Virus record (IMG/VR): IMGVR_UViG_2739367553_000005
Location: 21,071 to 85,070 of that record
DNA: 64,000 nt
Reading direction: 5' to 3' (one strand)
Source: a virus
Taxonomy: Duplodnaviria; Caudoviricetes
The position numbers were made by a program, and so were the translations under genes. Positions 1 to 62,325 of the stretch are shown piece by piece; position 1 is the first letter of the stretch, and each line of letters starts with the position of its first letter. The notes under the pieces were generated by a model, which worked only from the letters and a program-made list of their open reading frames with translations, was not told the origin of the DNA and made no database searches.

Positions 1-43
1 CTACGATAAGTTCCGGTTTTACATAATTCATAATCTGTTCCAT
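1..43 (-). CDS. Phage holin, N-terminus only (runs off the window)
   Basis: Manual translation MEQIMNYVKPELIV with an AAAAGGAG RBS; typical start of Clostridia phage holins; lysis-cassette position. Confidence 0.7.
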   Translation of the reverse strand, partial: MEQIMNYVKPELIV

Positions 44-47
44 AATA

Positions 48-269
48 TTAATCTCCTTTTTCCTCTAAGTCCGCTATGCGGTGATTTGCAACTTTCATCT
101 GCTCTTCCAGTCTGAAAGTGCGCTCAATTACAGTATTATGCTTGTCAACTTTCTTTTCCAACTGCCCTATACGATAATTTGTCAGTTTGGAAGAAGCCAC
201 TATTCCTGCAAAAGTACCTATTCCACTTCCTGCCAATCCTATAAGAGCCACCATGATTTCCATAGGCAT
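48..269 (-). CDS. Small membrane-anchored coiled-coil protein of the lysis cassette
   Basis: Hydrophobic N-terminus (IMVALIGLAGSGIGTFAGIVAS) followed by a charged helix; directly upstream of the holin. Confidence 0.7.
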   Translation of the reverse strand: MPMEIMVALIGLAGSGIGTFAGIVASSKLTNYRIGQLEKKVDKHNTVIERTFRLEEQMKVANHRIADLEEKGD

Positions 270-288
270 ATATCCACCTCACGCTTTC

Positions 289-420
289 CTAAATTTTAGT
301 TGCCAGGATCAGCTGCTTTTCTGCATCAGTGATCCACCCCTTTATAACCGCATTTGCCAGCATGGTAACCGTAAGCTTACCCATACCACCGTCGTATAAC
401 CACATTAACATTTCAAACAT
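289..420 (-). CDS. XkdX-like small phage protein, 43 aa (not in ORF track)
   Basis: Manual translation MFEMLMWLYDGGMGKLTVTMLANAVIKGWITDAEKQLILATKI; GGAGG RBS; AVxKGWIT motif typical of XkdX. Confidence 0.7.
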   Translation of the reverse strand: MFEMLMWLYDGGMGKLTVTMLANAVIKGWITDAEKQLILATKI

Positions 421-422
421 AC

Positions 423-848
423 TTACACCTCCAGACTTGATAAAACTAAAGTACCAACGGTTGTTTTTAAAGATTCATTATCCTTTTTAATTTCTGCATT
501 CTCTGCTTCCAAAGCTGCAACTCGTTCCTGTAAATCTGGTGTCTTAAAATAGGCAATTATTACATCCGCCTTTCTATCCGTTACTCCGTCCTCATCCTTA
601 CCGATTACATAATCAGACTCTTCTGTTAATCTTTTCGCATATACTAAATCTTCACGAGCCCAATCAGTGTCTCCGGACAAGCCGATCTGAGCGATTTCAC
701 CATTAGCTTTCAAGAGAGCCTTGACGCTATCAAAGGAAGCCGATCCTTTCTGAAAGGTAACTGTACCCCCGGTTTCTCCCAATTTTATCCCGTCAGGTAC
801 CAGATCAAAAGCCTGATCCCCAAACTTAATTTTTTCGATATTATTCAT
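423..848 (-). CDS. Hypothetical phage protein following the tail fibre region
   Basis: 141-aa ORF with C-terminal coiled coil; position before the XkdX-like gene. Confidence 0.75.
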   Translation of the reverse strand: MNNIEKIKFGDQAFDLVPDGIKLGETGGTVTFQKGSASFDSVKALLKANGEIAQIGLSGDTDWAREDLVYAKRLTEESDYVIGKDEDGVTDRKADVIIAYFKTPDLQERVAALEAENAEIKKDNESLKTTVGTLVLSSLEV

Positions 849-917
849 TATTCAATCCTTTCCGCCTCTTAGGCATAAAAATAAGCCCCTACAGGAGCCA
901 TTGGTTTACATTAAACT

Positions 918-1184
918 TTACAATGCATCGAACCGATCAGCCTTCTCCTTGATCTGATCGAATTCTTCTTTTCCCATGAAATAGATCGACTGGCTTTCAA
1001 TACGTTCCTCCACCTCCTGGGCAGTGCCAGTCATGTCTATTCCTTCGATCTTCAGCTTACTAATAACACTCAGTTCTTTTCGGCAGAGGTTAATCAGCAG
1101 CACCTCTTTATTAGTTGGATCCGTCTTTTCTGTTAGCTGATTGATTATTGCTTCCAGTAGTTTTTCACAAACAAATTGTATCAT
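918..1184 (-). CDS. Hypothetical protein
   Basis: ORF 918-1226; likely ATG at 1184 after a GAAAGG RBS. Confidence 0.55.
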   Translation of the reverse strand: MIQFVCEKLLEAIINQLTEKTDPTNKEVLLINLCRKELSVISKLKIEGIDMTGTAQEVEERIESQSIYFMGKEEFDQIKEKADRFDAL

Positions 1185-1401
1185 GGTGACCTTTCTCCCG
1201 GCTTGGGGTAATAAAATAAGCCCCAATAAGGGACTGTTTTACAAGTTTAATAAGATAGTAATACTGGTATTATTTTATCTCATTCATATCAAGTGTACTA
1301 ATTTTATTATATTATCCTAGAAGATTTACATTTAATTACAGCAAGGTTGGTATAAATTTTAGTTCTTACAAACATACTATTAGTTAAAAAGGAGTCTAAT
1401 T

Positions 1402-2268
1402 ATGCTTACTATAGAATTAATCATGCAAACAATCGGTAATGATATAAAAACAAAAACCGCACAAATAATACTAAGCAATTTATTTAAATCTGATGATACT
1501 GAAAAATTAATAACGAAAGCAATAAATGAAATATGCAACCAAGTACAAAAAATCATTGATGATGCATTTATGAGAGAATACATTGCAAAAACTGACAGCA
1601 TTTCATCTAGAATTTCATCTTATATACTAACTAACGATACAGAAATGTTGGATGAATTATATTCTGATGCTTCTGATATGGTACATCAGTTAAAACGTTT
1701 TAATTCATTAGAAGGTATTATAGCATTTAATTCGATTTGCAGTCTCCATTTAATCGTTGTGAAAGCATTAGCTGAAAAAAAGAGCAAATATTACAAAGAT
1801 CTTACAAGACTTGGCAAAGAATATGCTCAAATGCTGATTAGTAAGACACCTATAATAAATGAAATTTTTAGTGAAAGCGTAAGTCATTCACGACCTTGCG
1901 ATATATCTAAACCGCATCAATCTTTCAATGGTTATTCGATCAAACAGGATGGTTTTAAGGAAAAATATATCTTAAAACTATACACCTATTTCAATGATTA
2001 TTGGAAAGATAATGCTATGATATATTCTGAATCAGAAATGGAGATTCCTCAATTTGATGATCAAAGACGTTTAAATTTTCTTATTCATAGTAACGGAGGA
2101 GCCTTTTTGGAGGAGGCAACTAAATACCCTCAAAACAAAAAAATATTTGATGATTTTAATGTCAAAGCAAGATCTGAGCGCGATTCATATCTTAATATGC
2201 GATTAGACATTTCGAACAAATTAATTAATACAATCACACAAGCATGTGAACAGTATAAAAACTTATAA
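1402..2268 (+). CDS. AT-rich moron protein, 288 aa, helical N-terminus, function unknown
   Basis: AAAAGGAG RBS; opposite strand to the late operon. Confidence 0.8.
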   Translation: MLTIELIMQTIGNDIKTKTAQIILSNLFKSDDTEKLITKAINEICNQVQKIIDDAFMREYIAKTDSISSRISSYILTNDTEMLDELYSDASDMVHQLKRFNSLEGIIAFNSICSLHLIVVKALAEKKSKYYKDLTRLGKEYAQMLISKTPIINEIFSESVSHSRPCDISKPHQSFNGYSIKQDGFKEKYILKLYTYFNDYWKDNAMIYSESEMEIPQFDDQRRLNFLIHSNGGAFLEEATKYPQNKKIFDDFNVKARSERDSYLNMRLDISNKLINTITQACEQYKNL

Positions 2269-2460
2269 AAGTGTAAGTTGTTCTAAATCCTGATACTGAC
2301 ACTAATCATTAAGAAAGTCGGCTCTGGCTGAAGCTTATCGGTCAGAGCATTCGTTAAGAAAAGAATTTCCTCACAATTATTTGTATCTTTATTACATTTC
2401 TTTTTAATCTAAACCATAAGGTCTTCAATTGTCTGATCTAATTTTACTTTAATCATTTTT

Positions 2461-2510
2461 CCTCTTTCTACTGTTTTACGGACAGTTCCGGTTTTACGTT
2501 AAATAGCAAT
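2461..2510 (+). repeat. Repeat site A (~50 bp, ends in core TAAATAGCAAT)
   Basis: cctctttctactgttttacggacagttccggttttacgttaaatagcaat; aligns with sites B and C. Confidence 0.9.
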
Positions 2511-2610
2511 ATTCAACTCCTTTTGATTTTCTTTTAATTGTATGCTGCTTTGCTTGTACCGTTTGTCTCTATAATAAATGCCTTTTCCACCTGCTTTCTA
2601 TGTTTAAAAA

Positions 2611-2649
2611 CAACAAAGAACCTGATTATCAAAAGACTTTCAGGTTCTT
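2611..2649 (-). terminator. Intrinsic terminator downstream of the 186-aa gene
   Basis: AAGAACCTGA / TCAGGTTCTT inverted repeat with a T-rich tail on the minus strand. Confidence 0.6.
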
Positions 2650-2691
2650 AAATCAACAATAAAGTATTGCAGTTAAATGTTATTTATAATA

Positions 2692-3252
2692 TTAAACTAA
2701 AGTTACCGCCAAATTTTCAATAATTAATCCAGTAAATTCTTCTGCAGCATTCATTACTTGTTCTCTAAATAGTGGTATAACTCTGTCTCGTACAAAATGT
2801 CCAGGATTATCATTATGATCAGGATCGACTTGTATTTCTAATTTGACCTGTAAATTCTTACTTGGTTCTGCCACGAACCTTGCCTTCATAATTCCTTTAG
2901 GATGTACACTGCCCCATTCATTATTAAGAAAAGTACATTTCCCAAGTGCACACGCCCAATATTCTCCATGAGTTGTAGATGTATATTGATAAGAAATATC
3001 TAAATCAAAATACCAAAGATAGTATTTGTTTTCAATTAATATCTTTTTAACGTAGCCATTGTTGGCTACGAATTTCTCTATATGGCCTTCTCCTTTTGCC
3101 ATTATTTTATTTCCATTTCCAAACCTATCAAGATTTTCCTTATACGTTGTAAGGTCTTTTTTCACTGAAGCATTCAATATTTTACTATTCATAAAATCTA
3201 CAAATTCTTTAGTAACTACCTTTTCTTCTGTTCTTTCAAGAACTTCATTCAT
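2692..3252 (-). CDS. Hypothetical cassette-borne protein, 186 aa
   Basis: GGAGG RBS, own terminator, lies between repeat sites A and B. Confidence 0.8.
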   Translation of the reverse strand: MNEVLERTEEKVVTKEFVDFMNSKILNASVKKDLTTYKENLDRFGNGNKIMAKGEGHIEKFVANNGYVKKILIENKYYLWYFDLDISYQYTSTTHGEYWACALGKCTFLNNEWGSVHPKGIMKARFVAEPSKNLQVKLEIQVDPDHNDNPGHFVRDRVIPLFREQVMNAAEEFTGLIIENLAVTLV

Positions 3253-3354
3253 TTCAATACCTCCATTTATTATGATTACTTTTCTTTATTATTTGTTTTT
3301 TTTCGAAATTAATTCATAAAATCCATTTTGATTATTTTTTCCATAATATTTTTT

Positions 3355-3403
3355 CCTCTTTCTGCTGTTTTCGGACAGCTCCGGCTCTCAACTAAATAGC
3401 AAT
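3355..3403 (+). repeat. Repeat site B
   Basis: cctctttctgctgttttcggacagctccggctctcaactaaatagcaat. Confidence 0.9.
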
Positions 3404-3614
3404 TCTTTTTCTTTCGAAATTCTTTCGGCGATTGCCTTGCAGATAACCACCACAATTGTTAATAGGATTGTGGTTCCACCTACCATATGTACTTTTGCTT
3501 TCTGTTTTACTTTTGAACAATAAATAAAATTTATTGGATCTCCTCCCAAATAATATTTGTTATTTTCCTACAATCTGATAAAATATTATTATCAAATTGA
3601 AAGGTCGTGATTTT

Positions 3615-4442
3615 ATGTTAGATGGATTCGACAAATTAGCAGAAGGAGCCGGAAAAGCTCTGAAAAACATTCCAGAACTTTATGATGACGCTCTAAAACC
3701 TTCCGCGCAAGAATCAGGAAAACTTTTGGCTCGAATACCTCGTGCAATCAATGCTGTCTTTGCTGATCTTGATAAATGGATACTAAACAAAGAATACAGC
3801 ATTGAAGAAACAAAAAAATTATTAAGTTATAAGCTTGAAAACATCTCACCCGAAAAAATCGTAACACCAGAACCATATGTTGCAATTCCAGCAATACAAG
3901 CAATTTCTTATTCAATGGATAGTAAAGAATTAAGAAACTTATATGCTAATCTTCTTGCTAAATCAATGAATATTGATACAAAAGCTTATGTTCATCCGTC
4001 ATTTGTTGAGATAATTAAACAGATGTCTCCTATTGATGCCCGAATCTTAAACGAAATGCCTTCCAATAAAACTCTTCCATATGTAAATTTGAGTTCGACA
4101 GAGTACGACTCTGAGGTGAAAACAATTAATTTAAATTTTATAAGTCGTAGATCATTTCCTTATGTTACATACATTGATTTTACAGATTATGAAACAGTAA
4201 ATTTATCTTTAGGCAATCTGTCTCGTCTCGGATTAACTGAAACACGATTTGCACAACAAGAACCAGTTCCACAAAAAATCAAAAAATCTCCTCATTATAA
4301 TCTATGTAAAACAGAATTAGAAACATTTTTGACTAATTCAAAATGGCGTTACGAAGAGCAACTCCTTTTTCTTTGTTTAACCAGCTTTGGAATGGGTTTT
4401 TATAATGTATGCATTGAATCATTTAATCCAAATATGTTATGA
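3615..4442 (+). CDS. DUF4393 / Abi-alpha family protein (candidate abortive infection)
   Basis: Motifs P..YVAIPAIQAISYSMDSKELRNLYANLLAKSM and VHPSFVEIIKQMSPIDA typical of DUF4393; C-terminal LTSFGMGFYNVC. Confidence 0.75.
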   Translation: MLDGFDKLAEGAGKALKNIPELYDDALKPSAQESGKLLARIPRAINAVFADLDKWILNKEYSIEETKKLLSYKLENISPEKIVTPEPYVAIPAIQAISYSMDSKELRNLYANLLAKSMNIDTKAYVHPSFVEIIKQMSPIDARILNEMPSNKTLPYVNLSSTEYDSEVKTINLNFISRRSFPYVTYIDFTDYETVNLSLGNLSRLGLTETRFAQQEPVPQKIKKSPHYNLCKTELETFLTNSKWRYEEQLLFLCLTSFGMGFYNVCIESFNPNML

Positions 4443-4582
4443 TCGCTATTAAAGTATTTGATAATTGATGATTTATAATTACTCAAATAGCAAAACTGTA
4501 TTCTTGCTTTCCTCTCTCTATTTCCATATTATGGAATCACAGGTGGCTGAGCACCAAGTACAAAAGAAAGGAGGATTTAAAA

Positions 4583-5082
4583 ATGTCTTTAGCCTTAGCT
4601 TTTTATAATCATCACGGTATAATTATGTGCGCCGACAAACTAATAACCGCTACGTACAATAGATCAGGTATTAATTATGAGATACATCAATCATCTACCG
4701 AAGATAAATTATTTCTGATTGAAAATCAATATGGACTATCATATGCTGGTACGGCTTCTATAGACAATGGTCCCATATCCGCAGTAATAGAAAAATAAAT
4801 TGAACTTAATCCCTTAGGTGATGAAAATCCTTTGACACAGCGGGGATTACTTTTTCTGTGGAAAACGATTATGTTTCTCACTTAATAAGTTCCGATCTTG
4901 TTCATTTTGATTATACTAAATTCACCATGCAAGATTCTATTGATTTTTTGCGTTTCTTAGTTAGTACAGTTTCTGGATTAATGCGTTTCGGACAATGCCT
5001 ACAAACTGTAGGCGATGAATGTAACATTTTAGCAATATATCCTAACGAAGCGTACTGGGTGCAGCATTCAATTTTGCATTAA
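4583..5082 (+). pseudogene. Disrupted Ntn-hydrolase/proteasome-like gene (two fragments in different frames)
   Basis: MSLALAFYNHHGIIMCADKLIT...GLSYAGTASI stops at 4798; C-terminal part (QDSIDFLRFLVST...TVGDECNILAI) resumes at 4858 in another frame. Confidence 0.5.
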
Positions 5083-5236
5083 CTGCTTTGTCTTTCATTG
5101 GTTCAGTTAGATTTTCTGTGTTGCAATTAACATCATTAAATATTTTTTCATAACCTAATGGCCGCCCTTGAGTACTTTTTTTGAGGACGGCTGATCTTCT
5201 TTTTAATTCAGCGTACATTCTTTTTTTAATCCACAT
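5042..5236 (-). CDS. Small basic ORF starting immediately after repeat site C
   Basis: 64-aa ORF whose ATG lies just beyond the site C arm; overlaps the convergent pseudogene end. Confidence 0.3.
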   Translation of the reverse strand: MWIKKRMYAELKRRSAVLKKSTQGRPLGYEKIFNDVNCNTENLTEPMKDKAVNAKLNAAPSTLR

Positions 5237-5242
5237 ATTTAT

Positions 5243-5295
5243 TTTCTTTCTGCTGTTTCACGGACAGCTCCGTTTCTACGCTAAATAGCAATTTA
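5243..5295 (+). repeat. Repeat site C, including the 15-bp CTAAATAGCAATTTA (5281-5295)
   Basis: tttctttctgctgtttcacggacagctccgtttctacgctaaatagcaattta. Confidence 0.9.
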
Positions 5296-5571
5296 GATAA
5301 CAAGTTTAATTCGGCGGATATGATATTAAGATCTTATACTATACCGTCTGCTACATATGCATCTGGTAAAGGTGCTATACAAATTAACGGATTCACAGCT
5401 GTGCCAAGCGGATACGCTGTTTATGGCAGCAGTGTTGATACTGGTCAGTCTGCTACGATGATAGCCGATCTTAACACAGTATCAGGGAGCAATGCGTATC
5501 TATCTTATTATTCTTCCGCGCAAGTAACTACTGCAATTATAGTAAGACTGATATTGATAAAAATACCTTAA
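5281..5571 (+). other. Silent alternative C-terminal cassette for the tail fibre (96 codons, LNSNLDNKFNSADMILRSY...LILIKIP)
   Basis: Open frame begins inside the repeat with the same LNSNL peptide found in the fibre; no RBS; converges on the expressed C-terminus with 9 bp between stop codons. Confidence 0.8.
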
Positions 5572-5580
5572 ATGATCATT

Positions 5581-6528
5581 TTAGAAATAAACATCCTGTA
5601 GTGTGACCTTATCTCCTGCGTTCAAAGCTGTTGCCAATAACAAATACATTGCATTATCATGTATGCTTACATAGCCATACTTTCCAGTATCATATTGCAT
5701 ATATTTATAAAACCCACCACCACTGGGGATAACGTCTGCCGGAAGATCACAAAGCTTAATTTCAGTGGTGGAAGCAGCGTACCATTCATTTAACCCCCAC
5801 ATGGAAAATCGTTTTATTTGACCATATTTTGTAAAAATCACTTTAGCCGAAGCATCTGAATTAATTGTGAACTTCGTCTCATAAGTTTTATAACTTAAAT
5901 TGCTATTTAGTACTTTAACTACCGCGGTCAAATTTTCGCCAATTTCTAGATCTTCACCCATGCCGATCCGCTCCCAGAGGTTATGCACAAATGCTGACGT
6001 TGGGATTTTATTCTGATCATTTGCATCCATGTTGGTAAGCATATTCTTCAGCAGAGCATTCTGATCCAGGTTCATTGTAACTGCTATGGACTTTGATATC
6101 TTCCCAAGTGCAGAAGCAATAGCCTCCCCAGCTATGATGTTGGCCAGTTCCGTGGCCTGCTCAAAGAGGGTGTTTATATCAACACTCCCATCAGTCCCCA
6201 CCTTAATCCCATTGCTTCCCTTTACCAATCCCAAGGTGTTCTGTGTAGCTGTCTTTGCACTTAAACTACCGTCAGCACTTACCTCCATTGTTGTGCCGTC
6301 TGGCTTTACCGTTCCGACACTGTTTGCCGTGGCTTTGCTTGTTCCCAAAGCCGAAACCTGCCAATAATCTAAATTGGTAGGCAATGTCCCAATAGGAGGC
6401 TTAGTGTGAACCACATAACTACTCCCATCATAGGATACTAAATTTAATATTTCATACTGCTTATTAGGATTGTATTCTTCCGAAGGTAGCATTCCTATCG
6501 TGCCATATACAACTTCTGTCTCATCCAT
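5581..6528 (-). CDS. Tail fibre / receptor-binding protein with switchable C-terminus
   Basis: Fibre-type repeats (KATANSVGTVKPDG, ATQNTLGLVKGSNG); LNSNL junction at 5896-5910; tail-module position. Confidence 0.8.
   Translation of the reverse strand: MDETEVVYGTIGMLPSEEYNPNKQYEILNLVSYDGSSYVVHTKPPIGTLPTNLDYWQVSALGTSKATANSVGTVKPDGTTMEVSADGSLSAKTATQNTLGLVKGSNGIKVGTDGSVDINTLFEQATELANIIAGEAIASALGKISKSIAVTMNLDQNALLKNMLTNMDANDQNKIPTSAFVHNLWERIGMGEDLEIGENLTAVVKVLNSNLSYKTYETKFTINSDASAKVIFTKYGQIKRFSMWGLNEWYAASTTEIKLCDLPADVIPSGGGFYKYMQYDTGKYGYVSIHDNAMYLLLATALNAGDKVTLQDVYF
5896..5910 (-). repeat. Repeat site D, inverted relative to A-C
   Basis: Minus strand reads CTAAATAGCAATTTA, identical to 5281-5295 on the plus strand. 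Confidence 0.9.
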
Positions 6529-7643
6529 TATTGCAGAATCTCCTTTCCTATAAACTTACCGGCTTCCAGCCTGAAACTGATTCCTTTAGCCGCTGTCCTG
6601 CTCTTAAGTTGCATTTTACTCATATCAACATAAAATTGTGGGATTGATATCTTAGCCGCTTGATCAACCTGCGCTTTTAAAATTTGTACCTGTTGCCAGT
6701 ACCACTTTGCATTGTCCTCAGTATCTTCCGGTACCACTCCACCTTCTACATATCGTTTTGCCATTAATGCACTGTTCTGTGCTGCAGCTGCGCTTTGACC
6801 GGCCGCTGTCTGGCTTACTCCTGCCTGTGCCGCTTTATCTCTTGCCACCTGCTCACTGGCACCTGCTGCTGTTGCTTTCTGAGTTGTGGTTAAAACATCT
6901 GCCGCTGTCTGATTCGCTGCTGCAGTTGCCGCGGCAGCCTTTGTGGTAGCTATTCCCGCCTGGGTGGTTGATACTACCGCACTATCGGCAGCCTGCTGAG
7001 CATTCTGGCCAGAAGTCGTGGCATCATCTTTGGTTTGTTCATAATAAAACTTTGCACAATCGTTCTCGCTTCCTGGAAAATCTTGATCCCCGAAGACATA
7101 GCGCTTTGTAAACTTCTGATAATTGAGTGCGGCATCACGAGCCGACTGTGCATCAAGCATATACTGGCGAAATTCAGTCTGTATGGCAGCGTCAAGTTTC
7201 TCCATTGTAACGGATCCGTTCACAATCATGGCAGTTATGGTACGGTCATTGATCTGCATTGATACAGTAGCCGTGCTGTCCACGGAATAGACAAACCGGG
7301 TAAGGTCAATTATCTTTTGGGTGCCGTCTGCTAATGTAAGTACGAGTTGATTTTGATCGTTAATATCAAAGTTTAACACAACCTTTTCAATGTCCAGGTC
7401 ATAAGTCTTTACTGATCCATTTTGATAGGTTATTGTAAATATCCCATTATCATCAACTGACACATCTCTTACCAGGGCATTGATCTGCGATTTATCGGCT
7501 TTATTTGCGTCCAGCTGTACGGTTCTGTTATCCAGTTCCTTTACTCCGTTTTCTGTATGTATTAAATTAGTACGATTCAGCGCTGTTTTTTGCGATGGTA
7601 GATTCTGCCAATCTGTAACTGTATAAAATGGTTGCAAAGCCAT
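6528..7643 (-). CDS. Tail fibre / baseplate-associated protein with Ala-rich helical repeats
   Basis: 371 aa; duplicated NAKWY/CAKFY motifs and an Ala/Gln-rich stalk; coupled to the fibre gene (TAATG overlap). Confidence 0.7.
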   Translation of the reverse strand: MALQPFYTVTDWQNLPSQKTALNRTNLIHTENGVKELDNRTVQLDANKADKSQINALVRDVSVDDNGIFTITYQNGSVKTYDLDIEKVVLNFDINDQNQLVLTLADGTQKIIDLTRFVYSVDSTATVSMQINDRTITAMIVNGSVTMEKLDAAIQTEFRQYMLDAQSARDAALNYQKFTKRYVFGDQDFPGSENDCAKFYYEQTKDDATTSGQNAQQAADSAVVSTTQAGIATTKAAAATAAANQTAADVLTTTQKATAAGASEQVARDKAAQAGVSQTAAGQSAAAAQNSALMAKRYVEGGVVPEDTEDNAKWYWQQVQILKAQVDQAAKISIPQFYVDMSKMQLKSRTAAKGISFRLEAGKFIGKEILQ

Positions 7644-7906
7644 TAGCCTTCACCCTCTTTCTTTTCAGGCTTATTACTGATTTTAGTTTTCTGTTCAGGC
7701 GGGTTTACCCAATCAGCCGCCGAGTAAAGTCCCTTCAATTTTTCCGGTTTCTCCGGTTCTATAATCTCTCCCGGCATTCCGGAATCTATCACCTGCGCAA
7801 TGGTAGCTACCTGCTTCGCATTTTGGATTCCGGTTGTAGTGACGGCATTCAGCATGTACTTCATCTGCAACACCTGTTCTTCCGTGTATGTGATTATCTT
7901 TTTCAT
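7643..7906 (-). CDS. Small hypothetical tail-region protein
   Basis: ATG at 7906 after an AAAGGAGG RBS. Confidence 0.65.
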   Translation of the reverse strand: MKKIITYTEEQVLQMKYMLNAVTTTGIQNAKQVATIAQVIDSGMPGEIIEPEKPEKLKGLYSAADWVNPPEQKTKISNKPEKKEGEG

Positions 7907-7972
7907 AGCTCCTCCTTTCGGACATAGAAAAAACGCCCGAAATCGGACGCTCATTCTAAATTCACCACATTA

Positions 7973-8608
7973 TTAAATTTCGTATTCAGGATATACCGCT
8001 TCCCAAACTTCACGATGATAGGTGTTGACTTCACCATAATTTGCATCGAAAATCTTCTTCACTTCATATCCCATATCCATTCCAGTACGCTTTAATTTTC
8101 GCCAATCAAAAGTTTTCCAGTCAACTCCATTTAGAGCGGCAACCCGTTTAATGGAATACCAGTCCTTGCTACGATCTAATTCCAATCGAAGCTGTTCCTT
8201 TTGCTTTTCTGACTGTATAAGTTCTTCCAATGCCTCAATATATGTTTGAGGTCGTTTCGGCTTAATAGCTTCCTCCAACTCGTAGAAACGTTTTACATAT
8301 TTTGCGGTAAATATAATTCCCTTTTCTCCAGTTGACTTATTTGCCAGAAAATCGCACCCTAGTCTGGTTGTTTCGTAGCAAGGCCGTTCTTCTCCCTTTG
8401 CGTCAATGTAGGTGGATTTCTTAAAATAATCAACCACGGACATTTGTCCTTCGTTCAATATCTGGATATAACCTTTCCTATCTTTGCGGCCTTCTAATTT
8501 CTTTAAAAGATCTGCATGAGGAACGTCCATCATCTCTGCAATTTCCAAAGTGGTAATTGTCTGTGTTTTCTTAATTTCTTCTGTAGTAAAAATTTCGGCT
8601 CTGCCCAT
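7973..8608 (-). CDS. Rha-family phage regulatory protein
   Basis: TITTLEIAEMM...H..LL, YF.KSTY.DAKGEERPCY..TRLGCDFLANK.TGEKG..FTAKYVKRF. Confidence 0.85.
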   Translation of the reverse strand: MGRAEIFTTEEIKKTQTITTLEIAEMMDVPHADLLKKLEGRKDRKGYIQILNEGQMSVVDYFKKSTYIDAKGEERPCYETTRLGCDFLANKSTGEKGIIFTAKYVKRFYELEEAIKPKRPQTYIEALEELIQSEKQKEQLRLELDRSKDWYSIKRVAALNGVDWKTFDWRKLKRTGMDMGYEVKKIFDANYGEVNTYHREVWEAVYPEYEI

Positions 8609-8844: not shown

Positions 8845-9963
8845 TTAATCTTCAATCAATTTAAAATTAGTAATATTCTTTAAATGCCAAGTTTTTTTAC
8901 TCATATCTAGAGTACCTTTCATCTCAATCTTTATACCATCTCTATGTGCATCGCAAGCATGCTTATAATCTTCTTCCCCCAACTCAACTTTAATTGTCCT
9001 AAATTTATTGTCTAGACAAGTCAATATGGATATTTCCCTCTTATATCTCTCTTTGTCAATTCCTTCTTTCTTTAAAGTTTTTATATAACCGTCAACTAAA
9101 ATGTCTTTTGTTTCATCAACCATTTTATATCTTTTTGATATTTCGTTTAAAACAAAAAAATGGTTTCTTTTGATATTTACTTGTTCAATAATACCTGCTT
9201 TTTTTGTTATCGCAGATGCATATCTTATTTTCGTATCTATTTCAACATCAGAATCCTCTGGATTTAACTTTAATAAAGCATCGCACATATTCGCAGTAAT
9301 TCCAGTCATATATGCATTATTTATTAACCCATCAATATCAATTTTATTTTCAACAATATCATTAACCTGGTTTATTGCATTGCCTATCCTTCTTACTATT
9401 TTATGCTCTATTGAAGAATCTAGGTTACACTCATTTAAAGACATCTGCTCATTCTCTTCATCAACTACTTTAATATCAATATTAATAACAAAACTACCTT
9501 TTTCAGTTTGCCCTAATTTAAAACTATCAAGGAATTCCTTAGAATTATTAGTAGTTCTTAAACAAACTGGTGATTTATTTTGTTCTGCGCAAGCTGAATA
9601 TAAAATAAGTTCTTTTATTCCATCCAAACAGGAACTTGCATAACCAAGTGGCAATTCACCTTCTTCTGAAAACTTAGATATTATTCTAAATTCTAGAGTA
9701 TCATAAAAAGAAGTAATTATTTCTTTTATAATCTCATCAATATCCTTTTTATATAAAAATGATAAGCGCTCTAAAGTATTAGGAAGAACTTTATAAAAAT
9801 CCAAAAATTTCTCATTTGCTGGTATTGCAATAGTCTGATCTCCTTCATGAAAGACCATCATTTTCTTATTAGGAAAATTATAATCTCTAATCCAGTTACA
9901 CAGTAATAAATACTTCTCAAAAGAGTTTGCTGTAATTTTATATAGTTTTTCATGTTTATCCAT
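8845..9963 (-). CDS. 372-aa partner of the DUF4365 protein, function unknown
   Basis: AT-rich; start overlaps the upstream stop; hairpin terminator at ~8800-8840. Confidence 0.8.
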   Translation of the reverse strand: MDKHEKLYKITANSFEKYLLLCNWIRDYNFPNKKMMVFHEGDQTIAIPANEKFLDFYKVLPNTLERLSFLYKKDIDEIIKEIITSFYDTLEFRIISKFSEEGELPLGYASSCLDGIKELILYSACAEQNKSPVCLRTTNNSKEFLDSFKLGQTEKGSFVINIDIKVVDEENEQMSLNECNLDSSIEHKIVRRIGNAINQVNDIVENKIDIDGLINNAYMTGITANMCDALLKLNPEDSDVEIDTKIRYASAITKKAGIIEQVNIKRNHFFVLNEISKRYKMVDETKDILVDGYIKTLKKEGIDKERYKREISILTCLDNKFRTIKVELGEEDYKHACDAHRDGIKIEMKGTLDMSKKTWHLKNITNFKLIED

Positions 9964-10469
9964 TACAACACCCCCCTTTTCACCATATCCATTAATCTAA
10001 TTAATTCTACAGCTGTTAGCATTTGAGTTTCTGGAATTTTTATTCTAACCTTTTGACCATTTTTAGTATCAGGTAATCCTTTTAAAGAACACCAGTAAGC
10101 ACACTTTTCTAACTTCATTTCATTACATGACACTTGAACCCAATCATTTCGATTTTTAGGCAGAACAAATAAAATAAGTATTCTTGGAGTACCAATATTT
10201 AGCTGTATTAGATCTTTGTAATTCTTAACTTCTAAATCATATATTATAATCCCTGATTTAATTTTAGCATTAACTGTAGACTTCAGTTGAATATCAATAC
10301 CAAAGCCTGTTTGCCAATGCCTCTTTCTATCTGTACTATATTCAATATCATTAATTCTAGCATCTAAACCATAATCTGATTTGTACTCTTGAAATGATAA
10401 TCCTGCATATGCTGAAATTGCCTGCGCATACGCAACACTCAATTGTTCCTTTGTATGCTCCTCAGTCAC
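9963..10469 (-). CDS. DUF4365 family PD-(D/E)XK nuclease-like protein
   Basis: KEQLSVAY...DYGLDARI...IDIQLKST...YDLEVKNYKDL...PRILILFVLP...CAYWCSLKG. Confidence 0.8.
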   Translation of the reverse strand: MTEEHTKEQLSVAYAQAISAYAGLSFQEYKSDYGLDARINDIEYSTDRKRHWQTGFGIDIQLKSTVNAKIKSGIIIYDLEVKNYKDLIQLNIGTPRILILFVLPKNRNDWVQVSCNEMKLEKCAYWCSLKGLPDTKNGQKVRIKIPETQMLTAVELIRLMDMVKRGVL

Positions 10470-13167: not shown

Positions 13168-13566
13168 TTAATACTCAGTTATCGTTATCTTAATCGGCTT
13201 GTAGAGTATATCTTTTTTCTTCTCATTAACATTCACAATCTCATAGGGAATATCTGAAATATAAAACGCCCCCGATTTATACGAGGACGTGTTTGGATTC
13301 CAATATTCAATTTGACATTTTACCCTGTTTCCATGTGGTACAAAGGCATTCAGCTTATCAACATCTTTTAGCCATAAGTGTGTGGTGGAAAATTCCATAG
13401 AGGTGGCAGTATGAGGTAAGGCATTACGATGAAGTTCTCCGTTTCCATCTCGGTAGGGATCCAGATCCATTATCTGATCCGGCGTGCACTTATATGATTC
13501 CAGTGCAATTAATTCATTTGGAAACACTGTTCCATTTATTTTTAATAGCCAGCCTTCAAACGCCAT
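13168..13566 (-). CDS. Distal tail-like phage protein
   Basis: MAFEGWLLKING...DPYRDGNGELHRNALPH; GGAGG RBS; precedes the tail-tip gene. Confidence 0.65.
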   Translation of the reverse strand: MAFEGWLLKINGTVFPNELIALESYKCTPDQIMDLDPYRDGNGELHRNALPHTATSMEFSTTHLWLKDVDKLNAFVPHGNRVKCQIEYWNPNTSSYKSGAFYISDIPYEIVNVNEKKKDILYKPIKITITEY

Positions 13567-33694: not shown

Positions 33695-34945
33695 ATGAAT
33701 AAAATCACTCAAATCACGAAACGCGATATAATAGATATTATAAATAATGGTATAGTAGTAGATACAGACAATATTATAAATTCAGAAATTTATGAAAATA
33801 TTTACGAAGATAAAAATTATAAAATTTGCTATCATGGCCGCTTAGATGAGATTGATTTTCTTAAGAGAATATATGATCTACAAAATATCCCATCAATGGA
33901 TTCAAGATTTTCAGATGCTGAAGGCGATATATGGCAACATACGGTTAATAATTATGATTGGGACGATGATTGGATATTTTCAGATAGTAGATTTGAATTA
34001 TTATATGGCGATGATGAAGTATTCTTAAAATTTATATGTGAAATATTCCATCCCATAGTAAGAAACGAAAGTCAACCTTGGAAAAAAATATTAAAAATAA
34101 TTAATGATCTTCTAAGAATAGATGGGTATGAACTATATGAACATAGCCATATATCTGGTAGGGCAATTTATTTTTGGAGAGAGACAGGTGAAAATTTTGT
34201 TGAGATACCGGATAATACACATTCTAAATTCTATGAACTAAAATTAATTGGAGAAGGTTCTTATGCAAAGGTTTTTAAATACAGAAATGATACTTATCAA
34301 AAGATGTTTGTTATAAAAAGAGCAAAATCAGACTTAGATGATAAAGAATTGGAAAGATTTAAGCGAGAATATGAGCAGATGAAATCTCTGAATTCACCAT
34401 ACATAGTTGAAGTCTATGGATATGACGATAGTAAGCATGAATATTCAATGGAATACATGGATTTTACATTAGATAAATATATTTCAACCAATAATGGTAA
34501 CCTTACTTTTAAACAACGAAAAGGAATTTCTATGCAGATATTAAGAGCATTTAAATATATACATTCTAAAGAATTACTTCATCGTGATATTTGTCCCAAA
34601 AACATTTTAGTAAAAAAATATGATGATGTTGATGTATTTAAAGTATCTGATTTTGGTTTAGTTAAGATTCCAAATAGTAACCTAACATCACTAAATACAG
34701 AATATAAAGGATATTTTAATGATCCTGAATTAAGATTAGAAGGCTTTGCCTCATATGGAATAGTACATGAAATATACGCCTTAACTAGAGTAATATATTT
34801 TGTAATGACAGGTAAAACCAATACAGATAAAATTCTCAATGAATCCCTTAAAAGTTTTGTATTAAAAGGATTGAATCCAGATAAAAGATTACGATTTCAA
34901 AACATCGAACAACTTACTAAGGCATTTTCAGATATAACAGAATAA
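33695..34945 (+). CDS. AbiJ-N-terminal-domain / Ser-Thr protein kinase fusion
   Basis: N-terminal GRLDEIDFLKRIYDL...DSRF.DAEGDIWQH..NN.DW; kinase motifs IGEGSYAKV, VIKR, HRDICPKNILV, DFG. Confidence 0.85.
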   Translation: MNKITQITKRDIIDIINNGIVVDTDNIINSEIYENIYEDKNYKICYHGRLDEIDFLKRIYDLQNIPSMDSRFSDAEGDIWQHTVNNYDWDDDWIFSDSRFELLYGDDEVFLKFICEIFHPIVRNESQPWKKILKIINDLLRIDGYELYEHSHISGRAIYFWRETGENFVEIPDNTHSKFYELKLIGEGSYAKVFKYRNDTYQKMFVIKRAKSDLDDKELERFKREYEQMKSLNSPYIVEVYGYDDSKHEYSMEYMDFTLDKYISTNNGNLTFKQRKGISMQILRAFKYIHSKELLHRDICPKNILVKKYDDVDVFKVSDFGLVKIPNSNLTSLNTEYKGYFNDPELRLEGFASYGIVHEIYALTRVIYFVMTGKTNTDKILNESLKSFVLKGLNPDKRLRFQNIEQLTKAFSDITE

Positions 34946-35020: not shown

Positions 35021-35404
35021 CTATATTTTAAAATGATTAACGCTACTAAGTGATTTATTATGAATATTAAAAATCTGCCTTACACTATACCCCATTTTGT
35101 CTGCAATAACGTCCCATGTATAACCTCTTATGTACCGATATTTCATCAATCGCTTTTCCTGTTCATCTTCCATATTCTCAATTTTATCATATAGTTCCAG
35201 GCAAATTTTCACCTTCTGGTATCGGTAGCAAATAACTTTCTGTTTCAGATCATTAAGAGCATCTACATATTTATCGTCGTAACCATAAGAAGCCATCTCT
35301 TTCTGTATTATCTGGATATCTTCATCCGCATCAGAAATAGCAGCATTGAATGCAACCAGATTTTTTAATTGATCCATTGTCTTATTTTTCATTAGGCTAT
35401 ACAC
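35021..35404 (-). CDS. DUF1492/ArpU-like transcriptional regulator
   Basis: KYRYIRGYTWDVIADKMGYSVRQIFNIHNKSL. Confidence 0.75.
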   Translation of the reverse strand: MYSLMKNKTMDQLKNLVAFNAAISDADEDIQIIQKEMASYGYDDKYVDALNDLKQKVICYRYQKVKICLELYDKIENMEDEQEKRLMKYRYIRGYTWDVIADKMGYSVRQIFNIHNKSLSSVNHFKI

Positions 35405-36438
35405 CTCTCTCTTATGTTTCTTAATGTGTCAGGAGTTGATTGAGCATAATAAGCTGCCGTTACCGAAGGGCTTCCATGACCCATAATCTCCTGAATTGTT
35501 CCAATGTCCACACCTTTGTTTTTGAGTGTCATTCCGAGCGTCTTCCGGATCTTATGTGGGTATACCCTACTCTTTACCATGGCGCGCTTTCCGATAGTTT
35601 TAAGAATGCTCCTAATTCCGGAAGTAGTCATTTGATCATGCGGCGCCTTACACTGAGGAAACATAAAAGGGCTATCGTCATTCCGGGAGTCCATATATTT
35701 GCGGTAATAATATCTTGCATCATCATCTAAAAATATCGGCCGGTATTTGTCGCTCTTCTCACCCAAGATCATGATATCACCGGTATTCCAATCTATCTGG
35801 TCAAGAGTTATCTCTACCAGCTCCCCTACTCTGGCACCGGTGCTGCGAAGCACTTCTATTAAAGCACGTTCCCGGTAACTCTTACAGGCGTCTTTCATTT
35901 TTGTCATCTCTTCAGGCTTAAAATAATCAATCGGCTTTTTGATAGCTTTGAGTGGATCCGTTGCCTCGACCGGATTTTCTCCAATCAATTTTTCCTTTCG
36001 CATCCAAGTGAAGAAAGCAGAGAGGAAACGTCTTTCATTATTTACGGTTATGGCCTGATTCTTCTTGCCACTGGCATTTATATTCCGCTTCTCATACCAG
36101 GACAGGTAATAGCTGATATCGGATTCCTCTATCCTATCCAGCGGCTTGTCAATCAAGGTAATCAGGCGTTTAACTGAACTAAGATATGCTTGCTTAGTAT
36201 TATCTTTTATTTTTTTCTTCACTATAAAAAGCTGAACGATGTACTTATTCTTCTGATCCGTGTCATTCTGATATTCTACCGGAAGAGTGGTTATTTCTTC
36301 CATGTTGACATTGACAAATTCCTTTATGATTACCTGATGAAGAATGTCTAAAACATCTTTAGTCACATGCTCTGCCATGGCAACAATAATGTTGTTAATT
36401 ACCTGCGCTTTTATGGTTTGTCCATTCATAATATGCAA
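35392..36438 (-). CDS. Second tyrosine recombinase (XerD-like)
   Basis: STGARVGEL, VYPHKIRKT, IQEIMGHGSPSVTAAYY (R-H-R-H-Y catalytic set). Confidence 0.92.
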   Translation of the reverse strand: MHIMNGQTIKAQVINNIIVAMAEHVTKDVLDILHQVIIKEFVNVNMEEITTLPVEYQNDTDQKNKYIVQLFIVKKKIKDNTKQAYLSSVKRLITLIDKPLDRIEESDISYYLSWYEKRNINASGKKNQAITVNNERRFLSAFFTWMRKEKLIGENPVEATDPLKAIKKPIDYFKPEEMTKMKDACKSYRERALIEVLRSTGARVGELVEITLDQIDWNTGDIMILGEKSDKYRPIFLDDDARYYYRKYMDSRNDDSPFMFPQCKAPHDQMTTSGIRSILKTIGKRAMVKSRVYPHKIRKTLGMTLKNKGVDIGTIQEIMGHGSPSVTAAYYAQSTPDTLRNIRERCIA

Positions 36439-60896: not shown

Positions 60897-61062
60897 TTAA
60901 ATTACAAAACCGCCCGGTGCTACCAACACCGAACGGCTTCACATAGATTATACCGACAGTGCCGATACATACTATTCTTCAAATACATTGTATCACCCTG
61001 GCACTAAACTGTAAACCGGTATAGTGTTATTTTTATACTCTTTTTCAGGAAAGGATGATTTT

Positions 61063-62325
61063 ATGTCGTTAGTAAAATGTCCAGAATGCCAAGGACAAAT
61101 AAGCACACAGGCAACTACATGCCCTCACTGTGGGTACCCAATTCTCCCAGTTGAAAATAATAAAAGCAAACGAGGCAGACCAAAGAAATCAGATCAACAA
61201 TCATTAATGCGTTTACCCAACGGCTATGGTACCATAAAAGCATTACCAGGTAATCGCCGTCGACCCTTTGCAGCAATGGTCAATCCTAAACTTACACTTA
61301 ATGAAGATACTGGGAAAAGCTATTATACATATGATTTTCTAGGATCTTTTCCGGAAAAGATAGATGCTTATAAAGCAATTTTAAGCTATCAGGAGAATCC
61401 ATATGATTTGAAAAATGACCTGACTATCAAAGAATTATACGATGTATGGTTACCCAAATACATAGATGATAATAACTTAGATGATAATAGGCGTAAAGCC
61501 TATGATGCAATTTTCAAATATTGCGAGCCAGTTTATGATATTAAAGTTACAAATTTCATGCCAGCTATGATTGAAGATCTTATAAAGAATGCGTACAAAA
61601 CTGGAGATAGGGGAAATGAAGCAGGTAAAAGAATAGCTGCTACTTCCACAGTAAAAAGCAACATGAAGATATTATTTAATCTTCTTTTTGATTACGCTGT
61701 CTTTCTCCGGATAGTATCCGATAACTACGCACGTACCTTTACAATAAACACCAGTAAGGAATCTAAGCAAACGTCAAGAGTAGGACGGCCATACACCAAT
61801 GAGGAGTTAGCAATTCTATGGGATAATATTGGAGATATTTTTATTGACATGACAATAGTTCAATGCTACTCTGGTTGGCGTCCGGGTGAAGTTATAACTC
61901 TCTCTGTAAATAATATCGATCTGAAAAACAGAACATATACTGGTGGAATTAAAACTGAAAATGGAATTAATAGAATAGTCCCGATCCACCCAAAAGTTTT
62001 ACCTATAATACAGAAGTACTATAATGAAGCCAATGATGTAGGACGTCCTATGCTGTTTGGACGTACAAAACAATTTCATGGTTCTTATAGATATATTGAA
62101 AATTCCTTTAGACATTCGTTGTTGAAAAAAGAAGAAGAACTCGGAATCTCGGGACATGTATTACACGATGGCAGACATACCTTCTCAACAATGGCAAAGA
62201 AATATGGAATTAATGAATTTGCAAGGAAAAAAATTATGGGTCATGCCATTAAAGATTTAACTGATAGGGTTTATACTCACATGGATATTGAATGGTTCCG
62301 AAATGAAATTGAGAAGATTTTATAG
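61063..62325 (+). CDS. int: Prophage tyrosine integrase with N-terminal Zn ribbon
   Basis: CPEC...CPHC; YSGWRPGE, HDGRHTF, IMGH, TDRVYTH. Confidence 0.92.
   Translation: MSLVKCPECQGQISTQATTCPHCGYPILPVENNKSKRGRPKKSDQQSLMRLPNGYGTIKALPGNRRRPFAAMVNPKLTLNEDTGKSYYTYDFLGSFPEKIDAYKAILSYQENPYDLKNDLTIKELYDVWLPKYIDDNNLDDNRRKAYDAIFKYCEPVYDIKVTNFMPAMIEDLIKNAYKTGDRGNEAGKRIAATSTVKSNMKILFNLLFDYAVFLRIVSDNYARTFTINTSKESKQTSRVGRPYTNEELAILWDNIGDIFIDMTIVQCYSGWRPGEVITLSVNNIDLKNRTYTGGIKTENGINRIVPIHPKVLPIIQKYYNEANDVGRPMLFGRTKQFHGSYRYIENSFRHSLLKKEEELGISGHVLHDGRHTFSTMAKKYGINEFARKKIMGHAIKDLTDRVYTHMDIEWFRNEIEKIL

Follow-up and report, generated by a model that had tools for sequence, protein, structure and literature searches.

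The stretch of DNA considered here, referred to as the window, comprises 64,000 nucleotides (nt) of the IMG/VR record IMGVR_UViG_2739367553_000005 (positions 21,071-85,070; all coordinates below are window positions) and belongs to a prophage of a gut bacterium with a 5.6-Mb genome assembly, in whose late region three direct repeats, sites A, B and C, lie beside a tail-fibre switch and separate accessory genes from one another. The late genes of this prophage are encoded on the minus strand, where a fibre-associated gene (6528..7643) is followed by the fibre gene (5581..6528) and then by a variable island (~890-5900). Past the island come two small conserved genes (918..1226 and 423..848), a gene for a protein of 73 amino acids (aa) and a holin (Phage_holin_5_2), after which an Amidase_2 endolysin is found just left of the window.

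Relatives were gathered through exact-pattern scans (for arm, core and flanks, as defined below), a scan with the fibre protein, a DNA search within the same genus and exact-protein look-ups, giving ~30 distinct related loci from Lacrimispora, Clostridium, other Lachnospiraceae and uncultured viral contigs. They carry the labels L (loci and viral contigs) and G (genomes); G429 and G439 are of the same genus as the window, and C8 is a contig of the same genome. A metagenome scan for arm/core sites contributed three loci, a search with the arm of site C found no match among cultured-phage GenBank records, and a sample of 400 genomes of the family, one per genus, yielded only a chance match to the site pattern, with 2 mismatches.

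The repeat sites, the open reading frames (ORFs) linked to them and the parts of the switch are listed here in order of position; core stands for the crossover sequence of the fibre inversion, arm for the conserved stretch fused to it, TERM for the terminator flank and SD for a Shine-Dalgarno stretch.

1205..1246, minus strand: TERM flank, an intrinsic terminator (1219-1235) and the conserved block TTTACAAGTTT; in relatives it adjoins the outer core
1247..1258, plus strand: probable degenerate core TAAGATAGTAAT, at the far end of the array
2411..2458, minus strand: arm-A-linked stub ORF of 15 codons, its N-terminus resembling, by eye only, that of the intact arm-linked gene of L041
2459..2510, plus strand: site A, arm (SD complement, 24-nt motif, 9-nt spacer) and core (2500-2510)
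3309..3344, minus strand: arm-B-linked stub ORF of 11 codons, the 5' end left over from a gene that L026, L022 and L009 carry intact
3345..3403, plus strand: site B, arm and core (3393-3403)
4484..4582, plus strand: degenerate core CAAATAGCAA (4484-4493) joined to a conserved leader with a promoter-like TTGCTT-17 nt-TATTAT and then an SD
5042..5236, minus strand: arm-C-linked ORF of 64 aa, the sole arm-linked ORF of appreciable length
5237..5295, plus strand: site C, arm and outer 15-bp crossover site of the fibre switch (5281-5295)
5293..5571, plus strand: silent alternative tip (tip2), stop-free and in frame with LNSN
5581..6528, minus strand: tail-fibre gene, in which site D, the inner crossover (5896-5910), divides the constant part from the expressed tip (5581-5898)

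Sites A, B and C form a three-copy family of direct repeats (2475-2510, 3368-3403 and 5257-5292; 78-86% identical in a repeat search), in which pairwise extension carries the similarity between A and C to 74 nt (77%) and that between A and B to 39 nt (82%). Each site consists of the 10-11-bp core of the fibre inversion and a conserved arm, so that the direct repeats measure ~50-70 bp. The window holds four exact copies of the core, TAAATAGCAAT, on the plus strand at 2500, 3393 and 5282 and on the minus strand at 5899, all within 3.4 kb. An earlier note on this DNA, made from its letters alone, had described the three sites as direct repeats of ~50 bp ending in a shared inversion core; the repeat search and the count of exact cores confirm this, and the sharing with the fibre switch holds for the core, whereas the full 15-bp crossover site is present only at C, with 12-13 of the 15 bases kept at A and B. 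Read on the minus strand, the unit runs from the core through nine variable bases, CGGA(G/A)CTGTCCG-N2-3-AAACAG(C/T)AG and an SD to an ATG, and this ATG does open a short ORF at each site, as had also been noticed, of 15 codons at A, 11 codons at B and 64 aa at C; the last has no family match in Pfam, PHROG or PADLOC. The arm pattern, for which 0.01 chance matches are expected in the window, has no occurrence other than A, B and C anywhere in the 5.6-Mb genome. Beyond this genome, window 3319-3404 is 85-88% identical to the arm and gene start of L026, L009 and L022, and window 3348-3404 is 96% identical to the arm of the same-genus G429.

One of these sites, C, is the outer crossover site of the fibre switch. 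C (5281-5295) and D (5896-5910) form a perfect 15-bp inverted repeat, CTAAATAGCAATTTA, which reads in frame as LNSNL both in the fibre gene (5581..6528, minus strand) and in the silent plus-strand tip (5293..5571), and the two tips, 108 and 95 residues long when counted from the NSN of the site, converge. It is at C and D only that in-frame crossover sites split a constant part from alternative C-terminal segments. In relatives, the constant part of the fibre is 73-85% identical and homology stops at D, the codons AAT AGC AAT TTA are conserved where divergent or unrelated constant parts meet tips, and homologous tips occur both silent and expressed (L014 vs L017 and L041; L034 vs L018, inverted). 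Because the junction codons are conserved and tips are found in both positions, the switch itself is supported, and the comparison likewise supports the C/D layout as a fibre-tip inversion switch that is general among the relatives. A look for longer proteins in which the silent tip is fused to the fibre found none, which is weak evidence.

Two further arrangements of tips were seen in these phages. Beyond the lysis genes lie orphan fibre-tip segments that are bounded by cores and often form inverted convergent pairs with no fibre constant part (L008 9946(+)/11196(-), 3.8-5 kb left of the window; L018 2758/3385; L057 12595/13249; L058 6862/7481; L009 454; L036 16401). The orphan tip of L036 is 63% identical to the expressed tip of L023, access to such tips from site D would require inversion of the entire lysis region, and a conserved flank of the orphan sites, CATATTATGAATGGGAA(A/T)TGTGG.. 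(L018 ~2720-2758, L057 ~13250-13290), resembles the reverse complement of TTCCCAC/TTTCCCA. In L094 (G439:C306), positions 4880-5260 hold a second tip in direct orientation after the expressed one, with a degenerate core, TAAATAGTCTATTTA, before it and a truncated inverted core beside TERM after it; the switch is here rearranged or decayed.

At this locus the relatives differ in the number of inserts at the outer crossover site. TERM, which reads AAATAAGCCCC-loop-GGGAC..TTTACAAGTTT and is followed by the next conserved gene, aligns between the window and L036, L023, L038, L014, L065, L062 and L074. In the ground state, TERM, core and silent tip follow one another with no insert, as seen in L038/L057, L059, L062, L065, L073, L074, L077, L087 and a second prophage on C8; since these empty-state phages join tip, core and TERM directly, the arm is not needed for the switch. 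The inserted form reads TERM-core-cargo-arm-core-tip. One insert is present in L023, L036, L041, L014 and L034, two in L018 (cores at 7113, 7451 and 7932) and in G429 (cores at L093 4217, 3091 and 2877), and three in the window, which, with three arms and two degenerate cores, has the longest array seen. All tabulated island cores, about a dozen, are oriented like the outer site. Cargo and site number at orthologous fibre loci, the comparison that the earlier note had proposed as a check, are thus not fixed: there are 0-3 core-bounded inserts with differing cargoes, and homology breaks at the core. In L018 and L023 a single promoterless ORF spans the module from the SD of the arm to the next core, its stop codon lying at or across the junction, and a module type with a core and leader at its start and an arm at its end recurs with different inner genes in the window (4484-5292), L018 (7451-7942) and L009 (4808-5467).

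The second prophage of the same genome (G000 C8:68464-69225; locus L097 6465-7227) has a TERM that is 95% identical to window 1213-1249, and its switch is made up of a core, a 114-residue silent tip and, within the fibre gene, a second core in inverted orientation. The two co-resident prophages share the site and could recombine with each other.

L018 and L034 share 85% identity along 1029 nt, and the match runs as far as the final base of the core, beyond which one continues with a leader module and the other with a decayed tip. Homology to the window stops at 1249 for L080 (95%), G439 (80%) and C8 (95%), each of which has TERM and then a core or core remnant; L080, a 2.2-kb scaffold, is 95% identical to window 1-1249 and goes on with an intact TERM joined to TAAATAGCAA and a different gene. 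Likewise, the leader alignment of the window with L018, L009, L026 and L022 begins exactly at the core. Among 75 distinct AAATAGCAA sites, the arm is joined to 12 right-flank clusters, the fibre constant part to 8 and TERM to 4, while the leader is joined to 3 left-flank clusters. The joint of the core with TCACTTTAAGG, which leads into Abi-alpha, is preceded by TERM in G429 but by an unrelated promoter flank in L017, and in G429 an arm 96% identical to arm B of the window lies on the other side of the Abi-alpha module, so that module order differs between prophages of the same genus. The arms of the window are 85-93% identical to arms of other phages and 78-80% identical to each other, and this closer likeness to foreign arms favours separate imports over local duplication.

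At many joints the shared sequence amounts to 10-11 bp only, which we judge too short for ordinary homologous recombination; the latter would need longer identity, and its breakpoints would be scattered within the 45-bp arm. Many independent joints of ~10 bp, all of one polarity and placed where homology between close relatives ends, are what conservative site-specific recombination at the core would be expected to leave behind. As a separate observation, made by eye, the core of L036 (~10413) aligns with a core-like stretch (TAAATAAAAT..) in the upstream region of Abi-alpha, both in the window (3520-3540) and in L017, which hints that some joints may come from recombination with secondary, core-like sites.

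The modules of the window carry four genes besides those linked to the arms.

1402..2268, plus strand: 288-aa gene, with two weak promoter-like matches (9/12) upstream, at 1238-1265 and 1283-1310
2692..3252, minus strand: 186-aa gene between A and B, with a long-loop terminator-like hairpin at ~2607-2650
3597..4442, plus strand: Abi-alpha / PDC-S47 candidate defence gene between B and C, with its own promoter (3557-3584)
4583..5082, plus strand: decayed gene between B and C, whose intact relatives measure 213-225 aa

The gene between B and C that had been assigned to the Abi-alpha family does belong there by its profile matches (Pfam Abi_alpha, 2.3e-46; PADLOC PDC-S47, 1.9e-101), and its module, promoter and gene together, is also found core-bounded in L017, L036 and G429. 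Its neighbour had been called a decayed Ntn-hydrolase gene. The decay is evident from an intact 214-aa relative, P0001, encoded on a 121-kb NCBI genome contig, which matches the gene in two frames at ~94-95%: residues 1-84 and 134-214 are retained, 85-133 are deleted and a premature stop is present. The Ntn-hydrolase identity of 4583-5082 was dropped, as profile matches lend it no support and the family search returned only a weak Pfam match to MC2 (E 0.003-0.005). Between A and B, the predicted single gene is there, at 186 aa; the terminator attributed to it is a hairpin (~2607-2650) noted by direct reading, which the terminator scan did not report. Neither the 186-aa nor the 288-aa protein has a match in Pfam, PHROG, PADLOC or NCBIfam, and the former has no relative in the viral contigs. 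For the 288-aa protein, the Atlas feature neighbours include Endotoxin_N-type helical proteins (0.89) and CTXL_M clusters, a lead only, below the 0.9 level.

Other defence-type genes occur elsewhere in these elements: an AbiJ_NTD3-protein kinase fusion in the window (33695-34945, plus strand; PADLOC mad6, Stk2 and PD-T4-6-like matches), an AbiH gene in or beside the prophage at L008 8871-9845 (minus strand), and, among the tail genes at window 8845-10469 (minus strand), a DUF4365 protein with a 372-aa partner, matching the PADLOC candidate PDC-M02A/B (1e-53 and 6e-178).

With moderate confidence, we explain the island as a partly fossil, integron-like array of accessory-gene (moron) modules that probably arose through recombination events at the core sequence of the fibre switch. 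A, B and C would then be composite junction elements, in which the crossover core, (T)AAATAGCAA(T), is fused to a portable leader of ~45 bp, and the junction copies would mark the borders of modules that entered one by one at the switch's outer crossover, where the terminator normally follows the silent tip. The comparison of sequences shows the anatomy of the locus, its variation in copy number, breakpoints at the core and cargo shared between different contexts; from these we infer conservative recombination at the core, an enzyme that would act there and any activity that the array may have today. The partner would be a circular module, or a co-resident phage genome, with an arm-core site of its own; a single event would convert TERM-core-tip into TERM-core-cargo-arm-core-tip, and repeated events would give an array of cores in the same orientation. 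Minus-strand cargo beside an arm would share the late transcript of the fibre gene, and the plus-strand cargo (Abi-alpha, the 288-aa gene and the leader-driven gene), which has or probably has its own promoters, would be expressed from the prophage. That the array is partly decayed follows from its two stubs among the three arm-linked ORFs and from the imprecision of several cargo junctions.

Several observations weigh against this explanation. A and B retain 12 and 13 of the 15 bases of the switch site, the right half-site being missing in both, and the stubs behind their arms are truncated forms of genes that are intact elsewhere. The arm motif is found without a core in other phages and outer switch sites are found without an arm, for which reason the arm is not demonstrably part of the recombination site. 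The left junction of Abi-alpha differs by ~75-200 nt among the window, L017 and L036, and, as this joint lies at three distances from the promoter, secondary deletions or imprecise events have occurred. The sample of ~30 related elements includes many fragments, and some of its members are kin to each other. No recombinase is encoded within ~30 kb of the sites and no serine recombinase on the contig. The candidate that we considered as the invertase is the following:

35392..36438, minus strand: Xer-like tyrosine recombinase, with Pfam Phage_integrase and a SAM-like N-domain; its match to the NCBIfam Xer-type model is below cut-off

Homologues of this protein occur in 9 of the 20 site-bearing viral records, and the gene is absent from G429, which has a two-module array, from the L. 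sinapis prophage and from the complete records G414 and G424. The Xer-like gene was not adopted as the invertase, its distribution not tracking that of the sites, and an enzyme acting on the core may be host-encoded. Further candidates are an integrase-like gene at 61024-62325 and small recombinases of the host, among them a 205-aa serine recombinase on contig C1. Finally, other assemblies of the same prophage, examined through the contexts of exactly matching proteins, are co-linear with the window and offer no alternative arrangement; L080 was the one informative addition from these look-ups. The integron-like excision and integration that the earlier note envisaged thus finds partial support, in the comparison of the ~30 relatives only, while the co-linear assemblies of this prophage and the lack of an adjacent recombinase speak against it.

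The nature of the arm bears on the alternatives. Its ~45 bp comprise a 9-nt spacer, a nearly invariant 24-nt motif, CGGAGCTGTCCG-N2-3-AAACAGCAG, and an SD, and the genes adjacent to it differ from phage to phage. In unrelated viral contigs the same motif stands directly 5' of the SD that precedes genes for prohead-protease-like proteins of 437-438 aa (L042 4697, for L042/L053; L044 2509, for L044/L045; L054 2013), and in the L043 family (2434) it heads a ~170-nt leader upstream of genes taken, by position only, as scaffold and capsid genes. Literature matches to the literal motif strings were limited to unrelated primers. An Rfam search of window 1-8000 returned no relevant match for the arm, the folds of five arms are no more stable than those of shuffled sequences (z -0.3 to +0.3), and the sole stem has 4-5 invariant pairs and one variable pair, with 1 compensated change against 2 mismatches, covariation being uninformative because the stem is nearly invariant. 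A consensus scan of the arms detected no terminator and one weak promoter-like match (9/12), overlapping arm A. As the motif precedes capsid-protease genes in unrelated phages, the arm is probably an expression leader and not an attC-like site, and we regard it as probably a portable expression or protein-binding signal that travels with the modules.

Two other origins of the arm were considered and rejected. A coding relic, suggested by F[TS]DSS..LNSN being open in the fibre frame, is at odds with indels in the T-run that break the frame upstream, with variable positions that are non-synonymous and with the presence of the motif in non-fibre contexts; a relic of the holin start, suggested by a 21-nt match to window 2-22, is at odds with the shortness of the match, its restriction to arm A and the divergence of the relatives' arms at that place.

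The alternative that survives best, though we consider it unlikely, is a mobile regulatory cassette with no dedicated recombinase. Here, arm and core together would be a conserved intergenic leader of 60-70 bp, modules between leaders would be exchanged, duplicated and lost by homologous or microhomology recombination, and the core would be present only because the ancestral leader adjoined the inversion site. Such shuffling has a precedent in the PeSL elements of T4-type phages (PMC2839356), the arm does look like a conserved leader before an SD and an ATG, with a motif used elsewhere in phages, and the conserved backbones on either side (a 141-aa gene and the fibre constant part, 73-85% identical) would permit swaps of the whole island, just as the imprecision of some junctions would fit. 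However, the joints of TERM, core and cargo share only ~10 bp with other sites yet recur in independent contexts, one and the same 10-mer serves as the joint for the leader, TERM, arm and fibre flanks, homology between close relatives breaks off at the core's final base and not somewhere within the 45-bp arm, and the cores all point one way.

Less probable again is that the three units are regulatory repeats, that is, expression signals (binding sites of a late regulator, or translation leaders) multiplied through selection for expression. This would agree with the near invariance of the 24-nt motif just 5' of the SD at A, B and C and its identical position in L042, L044 and L054, as well as with conservation that resides in sequence and not in fold (RNA z ~0), but two of the three downstream ORFs are stubs of 11-15 codons, which leaves little to regulate, and neither the presence of the core with each copy nor the arm-less cores that also bound modules would be explained. 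A working multi-site shufflon, in which A and B would be live partners of D and provide more than two fibre C-termini as in Min, Rin and R64, is very improbable: A and B do keep 12-13 of the 15 site bases, inverted relative to D, but the frames joined to the fibre after their inversion close after 11 and 42 residues and resemble no tip, so that the inversion of the A-B and B-C segments against D proposed at the outset would yield only truncated fibres and A and B are not working shufflon partners, and it would flip the cargo genes too.

Returning to the integron-like array, our literature search turned up no report of a fibre-invertase crossover site whose direct copies enclose cargo modules, and the array fails at least one defining test of each of the integron, shufflon and PeSL systems. 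Integrons consist of the integrase IntI, the attI site and attC cassettes, the attC sites being imperfect palindromes that fold as single strands. The likeness lies in a variable array of 0-3 site-bounded modules in one orientation, a platform that may be empty, and modules filled by promoterless ORFs (L018, L023); the window differs in having neither an adjacent integrase nor an attC-type fold, in that cargo genes of both orientations occur, many with promoters of their own, and in that the platform is the crossover of a fibre switch. The Xer-like protein scores 54.9 bits against the NCBIfam integron-integrase model, for which the cut-off is 265.

Bifidobacterium prophages swap the C-termini of their receptor-binding proteins through the Rin shufflon, at an 11-bp asymmetric repeat named rix, and a tyrosine invertase adjoins the segments (PMC6109161); a second invertible locus with no adjacent recombinase is presumed to be served in trans (PMC6109161). 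The window resembles it in being a temperate phage of a Gram-positive gut bacterium with alternative C-termini at a short repeat, and the trans-served locus is also comparable, but all Rin segments are fibre tips with the invertase adjacent, whereas in the window no invertase is adjacent and the extra sites are direct repeats around non-fibre cargo. The comparison extends to the older inversion systems. Mu G, P1 C, p15B Min and R64 encode the serine invertases Gin, Cin and Min, or Rci, beside their segments and hold alternative tips only. C and D share with them a constant part, alternative tips and short in-frame inversion sites, but the contig of the window has no serine recombinase and A and B have no tips; of the features of a shufflon, neither a usable segment after every extra site nor a dedicated adjacent invertase is present.

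In PeSL elements, a promoter and a terminator stem-loop flank non-essential ORFs, which are shuffled as modules by homology, and mini-circles are formed (PMC2839356). These ORFs lie in a hyperplastic region, where the elements account for genes gained, lost or replaced between close phages, circles being the proposed vectors (PMC2839356). The repeats of the window are similarly portable expression signals, placed around non-essential ORFs at positions where close phages differ by indels, but the arm has no terminator hairpin, its weak promoter-like match is confined to A, and many joints share the 10-bp core only. P2/P4-type prophages have hotspots in which variable islands of defence genes lie between conserved phage genes (PMC9122126). 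The island of the window, placed between fibre and lysis block and holding the Abi-alpha/PDC-S47 gene, is alike. To our knowledge, internal repeated recombination sites have not been reported from P2/P4 hotspots. In the dif modules of Acinetobacter plasmids and in IMEX arrays, cargo lies between 28-bp XerC/XerD sites and the recombinase is encoded elsewhere; the window has comparable cargo modules bounded by short sites, but its core lacks the organisation of a XerC/XerD site.

The acquisition of morons by phages is usually ascribed to rare illegitimate recombination. In the prophages compared here, a defined 10-bp site that is already used for tip inversion repeatedly borders accessory and defence modules, and the number of modules varies among close relatives, which suggests a site-specific route by which phages pick up such genes; the array also draws attention to a widespread 24-nt phage leader motif. 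If the process is driven by a recombinase, moron gain and loss would be directly testable through the predicted circle and empty-site junctions, the junction between fibre and lysis genes would be explained as a cargo hotspot in these phages, and host-range switching would be linked to the turnover of defence genes in gut prophages. We tentatively entertain the possibility that temperate phages of Lachnospiraceae and related clostridia own a gene-capture platform, in which the tip invertase's crossover site would also serve for integration: small circular modules, each with a core and a portable leader, would be inserted, excised and reordered there by a recombinase acting in trans. If true, phages would possess their own version of the integron, and they would gain morons by a site-specific mechanism coupled to host-range switching.

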